A stretch of 9,381 nt of DNA from a virus (taxonomy: Duplodnaviria > Heunggongvirae > Uroviricota > Caudoviricetes). Each line of letters opens with the position of its first letter. Within the stretch, counting starts at the first letter, position 1. The position numbers and the translations under genes are program-made. Of the stretch, positions 1,607 through 8,842 are shown piece by piece. The stretch is taken from IMG/VR virus record IMGVR_UViG_2534682159_000017; one strand, written 5' to 3'. Below the pieces are notes generated by a model. That model ran no database searches and was not told where the DNA came from. It saw nothing but the letters and a program-made list of their open reading frames with translations.

Positions 1607-1634
1607 TAAATCCCTTTCAAATCATCAATATAAA

Positions 1635-1674
1635 AAACGGTGTATACCGTTTAAAAACGGTGAGTACTGTTTTT
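1635..1674 (+). promoter_or_regulatory. Two tandem near-palindromic operator-like sites upstream of alpA
   Basis: Site 1 AAACGGT-GTAT-ACCGTTT (1635-1652) is a perfect 7-bp inverted repeat. Site 2 AAACGGT-GAGT-ACTGTTT (1655-1672) has one arm mismatch. Centres are about 20 bp apart (two helical turns), about 65-105 bp upstream of the alpA ATG. Confidence 0.5.
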
Positions 1675-1738
1675 CCCTGCATCCGATGATTTACCGTATT
1701 TCTCACCGGAATACACCGGATTAATGAGGTAAATCACG

Positions 1739-3876: not shown

Positions 3877-4176
3877 ATGAAACTTAAATATTCTGGCTTA
3901 ACTGCCAGTGGCAACACTCACCCTAAATTTACGCGCGGTGATATTTACCGCGACCAGTACGGCGGTACGGTAATGATTAAGGGCGTGGCGGGACGGTGCG
4001 TAACTTACCGCCGTGAAGGTTACGAATATGATTGCGTGATGCCTGTTTATCAGTTCCGGCGTGATTTTTCTCTGGTACAGACCGCGCCGCATAACGTGCC
4101 CACCAGCAACTCCAGGGCACGGGCAAACATCCAGAAGCTGAAAACCATGATTAACGGATTCAGGGGTAAAAAATGA
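3877..4176 (+). CDS. Hypothetical protein (99 aa)
   Basis: SD GGAGA (3863-3867) 9 nt before the ATG; stop overlaps the rep start as ATGA at 4173-4176. No recognisable family. Confidence 0.6.
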   Translation: MKLKYSGLTASGNTHPKFTRGDIYRDQYGGTVMIKGVAGRCVTYRREGYEYDCVMPVYQFRRDFSLVQTAPHNVPTSNSRARANIQKLKTMINGFRGKK

Positions 4177-5582
4177 AACTGGCACCGAACGTAAAACGAT
4201 TACCGAAAGATAAATACACCGATGCGATTATTTTTGCGGGTATTGATGCTCATTCATTCGCAGAGCATTACATCATTGCACAGGCCAAAAAAGCAGGCGA
4301 TCCAGTCCCTCCCGTTTATCTGGGGCGTTATCAGTTAAGCGAACTGGATAACCTCCAGATTGTTGATGATGGGCGATACAGGGCGACGGTGATACGCGCC
4401 GGAAATATTGAAGAGCCGCAGCTGTTAACCATCGCCACGAAACTGGCGATCGCCGGAGTCCAGGAGGCGCGGCTACTTTCTGAAAATTTCGAATTGCTGG
4501 AGGAATGGAGCGACCAGCTTCCACGGCTTAGGGAGGCATGGGAACGCGGGGAAAGCCTGGTCATGAAAAAAATCCCCCAGCGAAAAACCACGCTACCGAT
4601 GAGCGTTGGATCTACCGGATACGACACACAGCTTGATTACGTGGTAAAGGGGATTATTCCGGCATCGTCGCTATGCAGCATATACGGGGCGAGCGGTTCC
4701 TATAAATCATTCCTTGCCGGATCGTGGGCGTGTCACGTTTCCACGGGCCGCCAGTGGGGAGGCCGCAGGGTGGCGCATGGTGCGGTTCTCTATGTGGTTG
4801 GTGAAGGCGGTATCGGCGTTCCGCGTCGTGTAAAAGCCTGGGAGGTTGTGCACGGTGAGCAGGTGAAAAATCTGTATCTGGTAAACCGTCCCATCTTTCC
4901 GGCGGTCCCGCTTGATGTTGATGAAATGGTTATCGCTGCCCGTCAGGTGGAGCGGGAAACGGGTAAACCTGTACGCATGATTATTCTGGATACGCTGGCG
5001 CGTTGCTTTGGTGGGAATGATGAAAATGATTCCCGTGATATGGGGGCGTTTATCCGTGGTTGTGACGAACTGAAACGGCGCACAGGGGCCACGGTGCTGG
5101 TGGTTCACCATTCCGGCAAGGATGAGACGAAAGGCGCGCGCGGTTCCAGTGCATTTCGTGCTTCGCTGGATGCTGAATACCGGATACGCAGAGAGGACGC
5201 AGGCAGCGAAGCGCTGGTTATCTCATGCACCAAAATGAAGGACGCGGAGGAACTCAAAGAAGCCGCATATGACTTACGCGTGGTGGAGCTTTTTACCGAC
5301 GCTGACGGGGAGTTAATCACGTCGCTGGTGGTGGTGGATAAGCCGCGCCCTCCCGTTGAACTGGAGCGCATCGAGGAGGCAGGGAACAAGACGGAGAATC
5401 ACGCCGCGCTATGGCAGTGCATCAGAACACGAACAGCACACGGGGAGGCGTGCACTATCGCCCTTCTCCGCGACGATATGAAAAAGCTGGGGTATGAGAT
5501 GAAGCACTTCCGGCGCTGGCTGTACAAGCTGGAAAATGATGGCGTAATCGTTATTGATGGTGATGACGTGCGCCCGCTGTAA
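4173..5582 (+). CDS. Replication initiator/helicase-like ATPase, RepA-like AAA_25 / RecA-fold family
   Basis: 469-aa ORF. P-loop region IYGASGSYKSFLAG, Walker-B-like MIILDTLARCFGG, and the family-typical LVVHHSGKD motif. Iteron array begins 4 bp after the stop. SD AGGGG 6 nt before the ATG. No primase domain recognised in the N-terminal 150 aa. Confidence 0.88.
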   Translation: MKLAPNVKRLPKDKYTDAIIFAGIDAHSFAEHYIIAQAKKAGDPVPPVYLGRYQLSELDNLQIVDDGRYRATVIRAGNIEEPQLLTIATKLAIAGVQEARLLSENFELLEEWSDQLPRLREAWERGESLVMKKIPQRKTTLPMSVGSTGYDTQLDYVVKGIIPASSLCSIYGASGSYKSFLAGSWACHVSTGRQWGGRRVAHGAVLYVVGEGGIGVPRRVKAWEVVHGEQVKNLYLVNRPIFPAVPLDVDEMVIAARQVERETGKPVRMIILDTLARCFGGNDENDSRDMGAFIRGCDELKRRTGATVLVVHHSGKDETKGARGSSAFRASLDAEYRIRREDAGSEALVISCTKMKDAEELKEAAYDLRVVELFTDADGELITSLVVVDKPRPPVELERIEEAGNKTENHAALWQCIRTRTAHGEACTIALLRDDMKKLGYEMKHFRRWLYKLENDGVIVIDGDDVRPL

Positions 5583-5585
5583 AAA

Positions 5586-5784
5586 GTGGGGAGTAAAAGT
5601 GGGGAGAGTGGGGAATTTAACAAAATTGAAACATAATTACCCACTTTCCCACCTGTATACACCCAAAAAAGTGGGGAGTAAAAAACATATTGAAAAACAT
5701 AACGTTAGAATCACAAAAAAAAGAGGTGGGGAGACGGTGGGTAATTTCAAAAAGTGGGGAGCAAAAGTGGGGAGTAGTGGGGAA
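5586..5784. repeat. Iteron array / replication origin
   Basis: GTGGGGA(G/A) direct repeats start at 5586, 5599, 5609, 5671, 5726, 5754, 5767 and 5777, with a degenerate GGTGGGTA at 5737. They form two clusters flanking an AT-rich segment (about 5615-5725) that holds inverted partial copies (CCCACTT 5640-5646, CCCACC 5648-5653). Confidence 0.85.
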
Positions 5785-6041
5785 TGAACAGAAAAACCAG
5801 AGATAAGACAGCGCCAAAATATAAAGCGTTAGACATGACAGAGCACGCCTTAAAGGTGGCAATCAGAACGATAGACCGCCACGCGGGGGAAGGATACGCG
5901 AAGGAACATCCCGACCTGATAAGCGCATTCATGACCACAGCAGCGGCAAACTTTGCCACGCTGACAGAACGGGAGATTGCCGAAGCGGAACAGGTAACAA
6001 CCATCAACGTAAAAACCGGAGAGTCAGGCGATGATACATGA
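5784..6041 (+). CDS. Hypothetical protein (85 aa)
   Basis: ORF begins inside the last iteron and overlaps the following gene by 11 nt. No good SD spacing; plausible globular composition; no recognisable family. Confidence 0.35.
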   Translation: MNRKTRDKTAPKYKALDMTEHALKVAIRTIDRHAGEGYAKEHPDLISAFMTTAAANFATLTEREIAEAEQVTTINVKTGESGDDT

Positions 6042-6303
6042 CCGCATAGCGGAGGAACTCGAGGCGAAAGGATTTTACCGGAGGGCGGCGGCGCGATGGG
6101 GTGAAGTCATGCAGCTGGTGGAGACAGACAAGGAACGGCATCAGGTTACGATGCGACGGCTGGAATGTTCCAGGAAAGCACAGAGGCAACCGGAGCCGCC
6201 GGATAACTTCGGAGACCTGAGAAAGGCAGTAGATCGCACTTATGCTGAAATGGGTATAGATGGTGTAAGCGATGAAATATGGTGTAATTACCAGGACAGC
6301 TAA
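6031..6303 (+). CDS. PerC-family transcriptional regulator-like protein (90 aa)
   Basis: SD GGAG (6018-6021) 9 nt before the ATG. N-terminal IAEELEAKGFYRRAAARWGEVM matches the conserved LE-x-KG-x-RRAA-x-W signature I associate with PerC/Pch proteins. Followed by a terminator. Confidence 0.7.
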   Translation: MIHDRIAEELEAKGFYRRAAARWGEVMQLVETDKERHQVTMRRLECSRKAQRQPEPPDNFGDLRKAVDRTYAEMGIDGVSDEIWCNYQDS

Positions 6304-6761: not shown

Positions 6762-6956
6762 ATGCCAGAGAACAACACCAGAAAGCCGGATAAAAGTGCC
6801 ACGGTACACATAGACGCCGGAACTATGGAGAAGATCGAACGCTATCAGCAGTTCATCAAAGATAATCACCCGGGTATGCCAGTGCCCACGAAAGGACAAA
6901 TCACACGCAGCGCGGTTGAATACTGGTACAGGGCAACGTTAGGAGCCTGGCTATGA
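6762..6956 (+). CDS. Small protein with a possible ribbon-helix-helix-like fold, translationally coupled to the protease-capsid gene (64 aa from the ATG at 6762; the track ORF begins at 6729)
   Basis: SD GGAGG (6750-6754) 7 nt before the ATG at 6762. Stop overlaps the capsid-gene start (ATGA at 6953-6956). Fold call rests only on the pattern SATVHIDAGTMEKIERY...GQITRSAVEYWY and is weak. Confidence 0.5.
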   Translation: MPENNTRKPDKSATVHIDAGTMEKIERYQQFIKDNHPGMPVPTKGQITRSAVEYWYRATLGAWL

Positions 6957-8842
6957 AAACATGGTTTTCCATTAAGGCTATGGCAGATGTTGTACATGTG
7001 CGCATTTATGACGAGATCGGCGGGTACGGTGTAAAAGCATCGGCACTTACTGACGAGATCAACGCGTGTGGTAATGCGTCTGAAATCCATCTTCGCATCC
7101 ATTCACCTGGTGGCGACATCTTTGAAGGGCTGGCTATCTATAACGCTCTGAAAAATCATCCGGCAAAAAAAATCGTACACATTGAAGGCATGGCGGCTTC
7201 TATGGCGTCGTTTATTGCCATGTGTGGAGATCACATCGTTATGCCTGAAAACGCGATGATGATGATACATGCCCCCCGTGGTGTTACTGCCGGAGTGTCG
7301 GGCGACGTTCGCCGCTTTGCTGATCTGATGGACAAGCTGGGCGACACGATGGCAGAAACCTATGCCGGAAGAACGGGCAGGAGCAAACAGGAGATCACCT
7401 CAATGATGGAGGCGGAAACCTGGATGGATGGCAATGAGTGTAAGGCTAACGGCTTCGCAGATGAGGTTATACCCGCGATTACAGCAATGGCCCGAATTGA
7501 ATCAAAACGAATCGGAGATTTTTCAAATATGCCGGAAAAAATTAAAAGCATGATCAGCCAGAAAACTGGCAGTGGCGAACAGGAACGACTTAACGGAATC
7601 CGTGAATTGTTTGGCACCTTCAACGGAAGATATAACGACCTGGCTATAAGTTGTCTTGCGGATTCAGAATGTAGCGTTGAGAATGCACGCGAACGCCTTT
7701 TACTCGCTATGGGTAAAGAATCAACGCCAACAAACAAAACCACCCCCGCAAATCTTTACTACGCGTACACGGATAACGGCAATATAACTGGCGATGCCAT
7801 GCGTCAGGGGCTTAATGCGCGTCTTGGTCACGAACGGGCCGAACGCGGTAATCCTTACGCCATGATGAGTCTTTTCGATATGGCACAGGCATCATTAACC
7901 CATCGTGGTATAAGCACGGGCAGCTACAGCACACGCTCGCAGATAGTAAACGCGGCATTCACCCACAGCAGCAGCGATTTTACCGATATCCTTGCTGGTG
8001 GCGCTGAAAAATCAGTGCTTGCAGGCTGGGAGCACAGCGGCGAAACATTCCGCCAGTGGACGAAAAAAGGTTCCCTTTCAAACTTCCGGGAAGCCCGCCG
8101 CGTTGGTATGAATGGCTTCTCAACGTTAAACAAAGTGCCGGAAGGGGCAGAATATAAATACATCACCACCAGCGATCGCGGTGAACCCATCGCGCTGGCT
8201 ACTTACGGGAATATTTTCAGCATTACCCGCCAGGCGATAATCAATGATGACCTTGATCAGTTATCAACGGTGCCAATGGCTATGGGCCGTGCAGCATCAA
8301 GAACGGTGGGAAATCTGGTTAATCTGGTGCTTACAGGCAACGTAAAACTTTCTGACGGAATAACGCTGTTTGACAAAAAACACAGCAACCTGATTGAAGC
8401 AGGACTGACAACACCGGGACTTAGTGCAGCACGTCACCTGATGCGCACACAGAAGGACAAAAATGGCGAAGTGCTGAATATTGCGCCTAAATTCCTTTTA
8501 GTTCCGGCAGCACTGGAAGATCGCGCGTTGCAGATGATTAACTCAACCGCACCTTTCGGGGCTGATAAAAACAGCGGGATCTTTAACCCGTACCACAAGC
8601 TACTTGATATCATCGTCGATCCCCGCCTTGATGATATCAGCGAAAAACAATGGTACATGCTTTCCGCACAGGGAACGGACACAATCGAGGTGGCTTATCT
8701 TGATGGCAATGACGAGCCTTACCTTGAACAGCAGGAAGGTTTTATCGTTGACGGCGTGGCCTGGAAAGTCCGTATTGATGCAGGTGTGGCAGCTCTGGAT
8801 TATCGCGGTATGGTCAAATCAGGCGGTACCGATTCACTATGA
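6953..8842 (+). CDS. Fusion protein: ClpP-like (S14) prohead serine protease, N-terminal, joined to an HK97-fold phage major capsid protein, C-terminal
   Basis: 629-aa ORF; SD AGGAG (6941-6945) 7 nt before the ATG. ClpP active-site signatures GMAASMAS (Ser83, codon 7199-7201) and MMMIHAPRG (His106) match ClpP GQAASMG and MIHQP. The C-terminal ~350 aa have capsid-like composition and length. Terminator immediately downstream. Confidence 0.88.
   Translation: MKTWFSIKAMADVVHVRIYDEIGGYGVKASALTDEINACGNASEIHLRIHSPGGDIFEGLAIYNALKNHPAKKIVHIEGMAASMASFIAMCGDHIVMPENAMMMIHAPRGVTAGVSGDVRRFADLMDKLGDTMAETYAGRTGRSKQEITSMMEAETWMDGNECKANGFADEVIPAITAMARIESKRIGDFSNMPEKIKSMISQKTGSGEQERLNGIRELFGTFNGRYNDLAISCLADSECSVENARERLLLAMGKESTPTNKTTPANLYYAYTDNGNITGDAMRQGLNARLGHERAERGNPYAMMSLFDMAQASLTHRGISTGSYSTRSQIVNAAFTHSSSDFTDILAGGAEKSVLAGWEHSGETFRQWTKKGSLSNFREARRVGMNGFSTLNKVPEGAEYKYITTSDRGEPIALATYGNIFSITRQAIINDDLDQLSTVPMAMGRAASRTVGNLVNLVLTGNVKLSDGITLFDKKHSNLIEAGLTTPGLSAARHLMRTQKDKNGEVLNIAPKFLLVPAALEDRALQMINSTAPFGADKNSGIFNPYHKLLDIIVDPRLDDISEKQWYMLSAQGTDTIEVAYLDGNDEPYLEQQEGFIVDGVAWKVRIDAGVAALDYRGMVKSGGTDSL

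Follow-up and report, generated by a model that had tools for sequence, protein, structure and literature searches.

The rep-ori segment of EcCICFT073, to which the functional demonstration is confined, is able to drive plasmid replication, and this ability is lost in rep or ori mutants, as described by Fillol-Salom et al. (ISME J 2018, PMC6092414). In the same study, the origins of Gram-negative phage-inducible chromosomal islands (PICIs) stand directly 3' of the initiator gene, with short iteron sets flanking AT-rich DNA, and the locus presented here is built in the same way. SaPI Reps are AAA+/SF3 self-loading helicases whose C-terminal winged helix reads the iterons, and SaPI origins consist of 6-12 iterons located directly downstream of rep, with an AT-rich middle and, in some cases, opposed orientations, Rep and origin being matched in specificity (PMC9371898).

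Positions 5583-5783 of the window, a term used here for the whole stretch of 9,381 nucleotides analysed, very probably serve an E. coli PICI as its vegetative replication origin, which is a known kind of origin. As in SaPIs, a single protein unites initiator and helicase and ends in a (predicted) winged-helix C-terminal domain (CTD), the iterons lie 3' of rep and the middle is AT-rich. The window Rep is nevertheless a RecA-fold, AAA_25/RepA-like protein, unlike the AAA+/SF3 Reps of SaPIs, and the likeness is thus one of design, not of descent. Moreover, whereas SaPI iteron sets are opposed, the outer arrays of the window are co-oriented and only a central pair is inverted.

Besides SaPIs, P4, a satellite of E. 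coli phages with an ori and a second cis element, crr, encodes a multifunctional alpha initiator that binds short iterons via a C-terminal winged helix. The window differs from the P4 origin in that its Rep has no primase domain and its iteron is GTGGGGAG, not TGTTCACC. Two sibling islands, L012 and L013, resemble P4 more closely as they associate a DNA-primase-family Rep with TGTTCACC iterons (2468-2754 in each). In P4, TGTTCACC is the type I iteron, to which the alpha protein binds; a literature search for TGTTCACC returned irrelevant primer matches only.

In iteron plasmids such as pPS10, RK2, F, and R6K, a plasmid-encoded initiator binds direct repeats next to an AT-rich unwinding element. 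Their iterons are longer and phased, DnaA boxes are present, and the host DnaB is recruited by initiators of the Rep_3 type. Direct repeats beside an AT-rich element are common to these origins and to the window.

The island and its gene content

The window carries genes for an integrase, an AlpA-like HTH protein, Icd/C4, an Ash-family protein, a DUF4222 protein, a RepA-family helicase, PerC, and a protease-capsid fusion. The main landmarks are as follows.

1-1242: tyrosine integrase
1739-1945: AlpA-like HTH protein/excisionase
2760-2836: isrK; 2858-2945: C4 antisense RNA (both from Rfam)
3877-4176: DUF4222 protein
4173..5582, + strand: rep, 469 aa, RepA-family (RecA-fold, AAA_25) helicase-initiator (Pfam, RefSeq, PHROG, AF2)
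5784..6041, + strand: conserved small gene, phrog_1231, directly after the origin; right edge of the rep-ori cassette
6031-6303: PerC
6953-8842: ClpP-protease/major-capsid fusion

In E. coli chromosomes, DNA identical to window 4173-6303 is flanked by tRNA-Pro/yejM on one side and yejO/narP on the other. At these identical loci, the RefSeq product name is 'helicase RepA family protein', and no feature is annotated over the repeats. More broadly, window 5100-6041 is matched in 1,640 of 5,426 complete E. coli genomes, 637 of which cover at least 80% of the stretch. The window shares int, alpA, unidirectional genes, perC, a capsid homologue, and integration on the yejM side with the Gram-negative PICIs presented in PMC6092414, where Table S1 records several yejM-site PICIs of E. 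coli, including one of 9.3 kb. Because the gene order is that of Gram-negative PICIs and yejM-site PICIs are known from that source, the window is assigned to an E. coli PICI. The integrase and alpA genes, a size of about 8-12 kb, an att site of its own, and unidirectional genes are all in line with such an element. For the att site, the fetched locus holds no exact copy of the published core TTTGTAGTTATACG, and a close variant, TTTAGTTATACGTTTAGTTATACGG, stands upstream of int.

Two observations concern the neighbouring genes. The association of isrK and the C4 antisense RNA with Icd-like and Ash genes forms a P1/P7 immI-like regulatory module within the island. Furthermore, most of the relatives compared (L003-L006 and L008-L014) carry an SSB gene between the small gene following the origin and the PerC/capsid genes; this gene is absent from the window (6041-6303), and only a remnant is left in L007.

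Architecture of the repeat array

The repeats occupy the whole 201-bp gap between the rep stop codon and the next start codon. The array begins within about 1 nt of the stop codon and ends at the next ATG, its last iteron directly abutting it. Exact copies of GTGGGGA stand on the + strand at 5586, 5599, 5608, 5671, 5726, 5754, 5767, and 5777 (span 5586-5783), in agreement with the at least eight direct repeats claimed by the first-pass annotation. The extended unit reads AAAAGTGGGGAG. Three degenerate copies, two of them inverted, complete the set (GTGGGTA, TACCCAC, and TTCCCACC), so that the origin holds 8 exact and 3 degenerate iterons of a 7-12 nt unit, far above chance. The features of the origin are listed below.

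5583..5783, + strand: whole origin, 201-bp intergenic region from the rep TAA (5580-5582) to the ATG at 5784
5581..5615, + strand: left array of three direct iterons, cores 5586-5592, 5599-5605, and 5608-5614
5615..5637, no strand: AT-rich spacer 1, 13% GC
5637..5647, - strand: inverted iteron TTACCCACTTT, reverse complement of AAAGTGGGTAA (TACCCAC at 5638-5644), left arm of the conserved central dyad
5646..5653, - strand: second inverted copy TTCCCACC, degenerate (from sequence)
5654..5661, no strand: central box TGTATACA, one instance of TRTATAYA, with the dyad centre at 5657.5 and GTATAC at 5655-5660
5668..5678, + strand: direct iteron AAAGTGGGGAG, right arm of the central dyad, giving CAC-N26-GTG spacing
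5679..5722, no strand: AT-rich spacer 2, 18% GC, least stable stretch of the origin
5725..5784, + strand: right array of four exact iterons (cores 5726-5732, 5754-5760, 5767-5773, and 5777-5783) and one variant (GTGGGTA, 5737-5743)

The layout is therefore three direct iterons, AT-rich DNA, a dyad made of an inverted iteron, the TA box and a direct iteron, AT-rich DNA again, and five direct iterons. The outer arrays are co-oriented, and a single conserved inverted/direct pair surrounds the TA box. The earlier description of two clusters around an AT-rich core of about 110 bp stands as regards the flanking sets and the low GC content, since segment 5615-5725 has 30% GC versus 50% for the window. 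It has to be amended for the core itself, which is composite and holds a central direct copy at 5671: 5615-5637 has 13% GC, the central dyad at 5638-5678 has 49%, and 5679-5722 has 18%. The inverted copies and the GTATAC palindrome reported in the core were both found again, as TACCCAC at 5638-5644, TTCCCACC at 5646-5653, and TGTATACA at 5654-5661. Of the two inverted copies, that at 5646-5653 is probably unconserved, being present in the window, L002, L003, and L007 and absent from L004-L006. AT-rich spacer 2 (5679-5722) is a candidate unwinding element. The window's eight least stable 31-mers include both of its AT-rich stretches, although lower stability is reached in other intergenic DNA.

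Mechanically called ORFs run across the repeats (5554-5787 on the + strand and 5617-5862 on the - strand), and one may ask whether the repeats are coding or a product of chance or low complexity. This explanation can practically be dismissed. GTGGGGA occurs nine times in the window versus 1.01 expected, a count reached by none of 200 shuffles; RefSeq places no gene at the repeats, and it is the position and orientation of the repeats that are conserved among relatives, not a reading frame. The ninth exact copy lies inside rep, at 4754. There, the extra exact AGTGGGGAG (4753-4761) encodes Q-W-G-G of the conserved helicase motif TGRQWGGRR; since this motif is also found in relatives with other iterons, the copy is probably a coding coincidence.

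The direct repeats beside AT-rich DNA could also be expected from a classical plasmid-type iteron origin, which would combine DnaA boxes and phased iterons of 17-22 bp with a Rep_3-like initiator and with DnaC as the loader of DnaB. The window departs from this type on each point that was searched. The Rep belongs to a helicase family and a Pfam search of the window gave no Rep_3 match, the iterons are about 9-12 bp long with an irregular start-to-start spacing of 9-13 bp in both the left and right arrays, and 5560-5800 contains no DnaA box with at most one mismatch, no IHF site, and no GATC. Such an origin is therefore most improbable here. The scans of 5560-5800 for DnaA, IHF, Fis, and Dam sites retrieved only two DnaA-like strings with two mismatches, which were rejected as they are GTGGGTAA iteron variants. 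An Rfam scan of the whole window placed no family in the origin. Folding of the origin as single-stranded DNA was mildly better than that of shuffled sequences (z = -2.1), the hairpins being formed by iterons and inverted iterons, and gave no evidence of a structured ssDNA signal.

The Rep initiator

The array abuts the gene of a RepA-family initiator, and the earlier proposal of a Rep-driven iteron origin marking the replication module is well supported by this adjacency. Three domains are distinguished in Rep: about residues 1-125 form the N-terminal domain, about 150-395 the helicase core, and a C-terminal winged helix is predicted at about 400-469. Pfam recognizes only AAA_25 (residues 151-318, E=6e-44), and the N-terminal domain (4173-4550) is without Pfam match. 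Among proteins of solved structure, the RSF1010 RepA helicase (1g8y) comes closest in sequence, with a weak score (E=0.0075). PHROG matches include phrog_2850 and primase-helicases, via the helicase part only, and neither Pfam nor PHROG detects a primase domain. The initiator of the window is thus a RepA-family helicase without primase, unlike those of sibling PICIs, which belong to the DNA primase family or to DUF927 and are associated with other iterons.

The AF2 model of the full-length protein, based on a shallow alignment of 27 close relatives, is mediocre (pLDDT 66.5), and Foldseek returned weak RecA-fold matches for it (RadA/Rad51, T7 gp4). Residues 400-469 (5370..5579, + strand) are confidently modelled both in the full-length protein and in the CTD alone, the latter with a pLDDT of 87.6 and a pTM of 0.75. 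The predicted fold consists of three helices followed by a beta-hairpin. Searches of the CTD sequence against Pfam and PDB gave no match. In Foldseek, the leading matches are all winged-helix proteins (DtxR/IdeR, PcaR, LexA, Fur, MepR, and histone H1), with TM of about 0.6, rmsd of 2-3 A over 62-70 residues, and probabilities of 0.9-0.99, at E values of 0.05-0.3 that are non-significant. In the AF2 model, H445 (nt 5505-5507) precedes helix 3 (446-455) and occupies the N-cap position of the recognition helix.

The locus thus displays an initiator gene directly 5', 8 exact and 3 degenerate short iterons (about 6-12 being usual for the type) arranged in sets that flank AT-rich DNA, and a Rep in which a helicase is combined with a predicted winged-helix CTD matched to the iterons, as in origins of the PICI/SaPI type. 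The repeats are candidate Rep-binding iterons, and their binding by Rep is very likely as part of this reading of the whole origin.

Concerted change of iterons and Rep in E. coli islands

Six RepA-type E. coli relatives (L002-L007), 79-97.5% identical over window 5100-6041, were compared. Repeat positions are kept in all of them, and the repeat sequence is altered in every copy together, inverted copy included. The core is GTGGGGA in the window and L002-L004, GTGAGG in L005 (O157:H7), GTGAGTA in L006, and GTGGGCA in L007. The inverted copy at 5637-5647 follows the direct iterons, as it becomes CCCTCACTTT in L005 and TACTCACTTT in L006. The Rep helicase cores of these relatives are 96-100% identical to that of the window, and variation in the last 65 or so residues of Rep coincides exactly with variation in the iterons. 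The first 125 or so residues exist as two alleles of about 45-50% identity that are independent of the iteron type and recombine freely with the near-identical helicase core. The window and L002 have identical CTDs and near-identical origins with different N-terminal alleles.

Sibling islands L008-L014 keep the DUF4222 gene upstream and phrog_1231 downstream, and their initiators belong to the DNA primase family or to DUF927. The same slot holds unrelated iteron arrays, made of TAACCCGC, CTGTCTACC, CCTCTACC, or TGTTCACC, and homology to the window restarts at about 5777-5836, at the end of the array. As the flanks are the same, other initiators come with their own arrays, and homology resumes at the array end, rep and ori appear as an exchangeable cassette.

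These comparisons bear on whether the repeats could be a packaging signal, either a small-terminase target or a pac/cos site. Short repeated motifs are possible in terminase recognition sites, PICIs need a packaging signal, and in some relatives a small-terminase gene follows a few genes further downstream. However, the repeats co-vary with the CTD of Rep and with no packaging gene, and the array moves with rep among islands that differ in their morphogenesis genes; in the window itself, neither Pfam nor the RefSeq annotation provides a terminase gene. Since it is Rep, and not morphogenesis, that the repeats track, a role in packaging is very unlikely.

A separate motif, resembling GAAAnCCGC(GC)CATTACTGG, was noticed in the long right spacer of L009-L011, L014, L040, L041, L044, L050, and L053. 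It spans Rep types and genera, and a function in priming or as a host-factor signal is conceivable. The window lacks this motif, its own spacer being simply AT-rich.

A conserved origin grammar across genera

A scan with one genome per species retrieved 80 loci with relatives of Rep. The same origin grammar after rep is shown by 59 loci from many Enterobacterales. They come from Escherichia, Xenorhabdus, Kluyvera, Kosakonia, Pantoea, Serratia, Pectobacterium, Morganella, Citrobacter, and others. In these 59 loci, two or three direct iterons at the stop codon are followed by a spacer, an inverted iteron, and a fixed gap, after which come a direct iteron, a longer spacer, and three to five direct iterons. 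The dyad starts 40-66 nt past the rep stop codon, mostly at 51-56 nt. Its gap is CAC-N24-GTG in 52 loci and N26 in the seven E. coli loci. TATA stands at the gap centre in 34 of 36 distinct 24-nt centres, versus about 0.10 expected by chance. The consensus of the gap centre is TTnnCnCnTnTATATAnnnGCnAA, and the TRTATAYA box is shared across different iterons. Several other genera have origin spacers that are not AT-rich, which makes the melting site uncertain.

The residue that precedes F in the K-x-F-x-R-W motif of Rep fits the fourth base of the iteron core without exception in the 59 loci, as follows.

KHF or KHL: GTGGG(G/T/C), 11 loci
KNF or KNM: GTGAG, 19 loci
KSF: GTGCG, 6 loci
KKF: GTGGGG, 23 loci

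In the window Rep, H445 is paired with GTGGGG. The N-A pairing is observed both in E. coli islands with a helicase core near-identical to that of the window and in Xenorhabdus islands with one of about 70% identity. The link between Rep and iteron therefore follows the CTD and not the overall phylogeny. As the loci are phylogenetically related, the covariation represents few independent events, in about three or four residue classes. The alignment of Rep with iterons appears to reveal a specificity relation of one residue to one base. Under this code, the core counterparts would be GTGAGGA for H445N, GTGCGGC for H445S, and GTGGGGGA for H445K.

Together, these features may be read as a CAC-N24/26-GTG pair placed on a TRTATAYA box between co-oriented arrays and combined with a one-residue code (H/K to G, N to A, S to C). 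This joint reading is put forward tentatively, at somewhat less than an even chance. No description of such a grammar, with a fixed pair on a TRTATAYA box and RepA-type initiators, was found in the literature, and the central inverted pair around the TA box has no mention in the portion of the PMC6092414 text available. The wider reading of the locus as an iteron origin is further strengthened by the occurrence of the grammar in 59 loci, by the covariation with the CTD of Rep, and by its agreement with the layout published for PICIs and SaPIs (PMC6092414 and PMC9371898).

A tandem arrangement was observed in one of about 22 Xenorhabdus loci. In Xenorhabdus beddingii (L016, 2526-2950), two complete origin units follow rep. 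The first has GTGAGGA iterons, which fit its KNF-type Rep, and the second has G/ATGGGGA iterons of the window type, with its own inverted pair and a TGTATATA centre. Judged on its iterons, the second unit looks like an orphan origin of another specificity.

The GTATAC palindrome and the TA box

The palindrome at the dyad centre raises the question of a regulatory role. In such an explanation, the array would mainly serve transcriptional control, with Rep or a repressor that binds TGTATACA regulating downstream genes or gating origin firing. GTATAC is indeed found four times in the window versus 1.14 expected, a count attained in only 5 of 200 shuffles. The three other copies stand in regulatory-looking DNA, at 1642 within AAACGGTGTATACCGTTT and at 2506 and 2544 within TGACAWTGTATACC. 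In addition, the last iteron abuts the next start codon, and bound Rep could affect the expression of that gene. However, the origin site CCCACCTGTATACACCC shares only 7 nt (TGTATAC) with these sites, which belong to longer and different contexts, AAACGGTGTATACCGTTT once and TGACAWTGTATACC twice. The palindrome is also lost among close relatives: it becomes GTATAT in L002, despite 97.5% identity to the window over 5100-6041, is broken in L003 and L007, and reads CCTATATATAGG in L006. The first-pass annotation had likened TGTATACA to a repressor operator present at alpA and the switch, a comparison that these data do not sustain. Moreover, origins of other genera keep a TA-rich box at the dyad centre although their iterons differ, and no sigma-70-like promoter was found in 5300-6100. 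A mainly transcriptional role of the array is hence unlikely.

Because it is conserved at the dyad centre in other genera along with different iterons, the TRTATAYA box looks like a structural part of the origin and not like an element-specific operator. It is possibly the place where unstacking starts. The TA box was also considered as a -10 element, a candidate dropped as improbable since the promoter scan of 5300-6100 gave no promoter-like site. A terminator scan of the same interval retrieved one weak hairpin, inside rep and on the minus strand.

Outside the origin, TGTATACC occurs three times (window 1630-1675 and 2495-2555), at 1641 in AAACGGTGTATACCGTTT and at 2505 and 2543 in TGACAWTGTATACC. 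Upstream of the AlpA-like gene, a near-repeat, AAACGGTGAGTACTGTTT, comes after AAACGGTGTATACCGTTT, and the two copies of TGACAWTGTATACC flank a TTGACA/TATAAT-like pair upstream of isrK/C4. From their placement, these three copies are plausible operators for regulators of the island.

Proposed initiation of replication

Upon induction, the Rep of the island, a RepA/DnaB-like RecA-fold helicase, would bind the AAAGTGGGGAG iterons through its C-terminal winged-helix domain, with H445, at the start of the recognition helix, helping to read the fourth base of the core. Rep would fill the left array (three sites), the central inverted pair around the TA-rich box, and the right array (five sites). 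Assembly of the Rep oligomer would then open the duplex at the TA box and/or at the 18%-GC stretch 5679-5722. The helicase part of Rep might next be self-loaded, after which host primase and polymerase would take over, a host primase being expected since Rep has no primase domain. The repeat layout next to rep, its conservation across genera, its covariation with the CTD, and the predicted winged-helix-like fold come from the computations, and binding, the site of melting, self-loading, and the dependence on host factors are inferred.

Significance for PICI replication

The assignment fixes the replication module of the island, with rep at 4173-5582 and ori at 5583-5783. It is useful for annotation, as RefSeq leaves the region blank, and for PICI-derived vectors, and it leaves the general picture of PICI replication unchanged. 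The conserved central dyad is an obvious place to seek helicase loading. If the joint reading of the grammar is true, these islands would have a simple and engineerable specificity code, and a RecA-fold helicase would have converged on the self-loading design of the SF3 Reps of SaPIs. The relation of one residue to one base would explain how many islands coexist without cross-replication.
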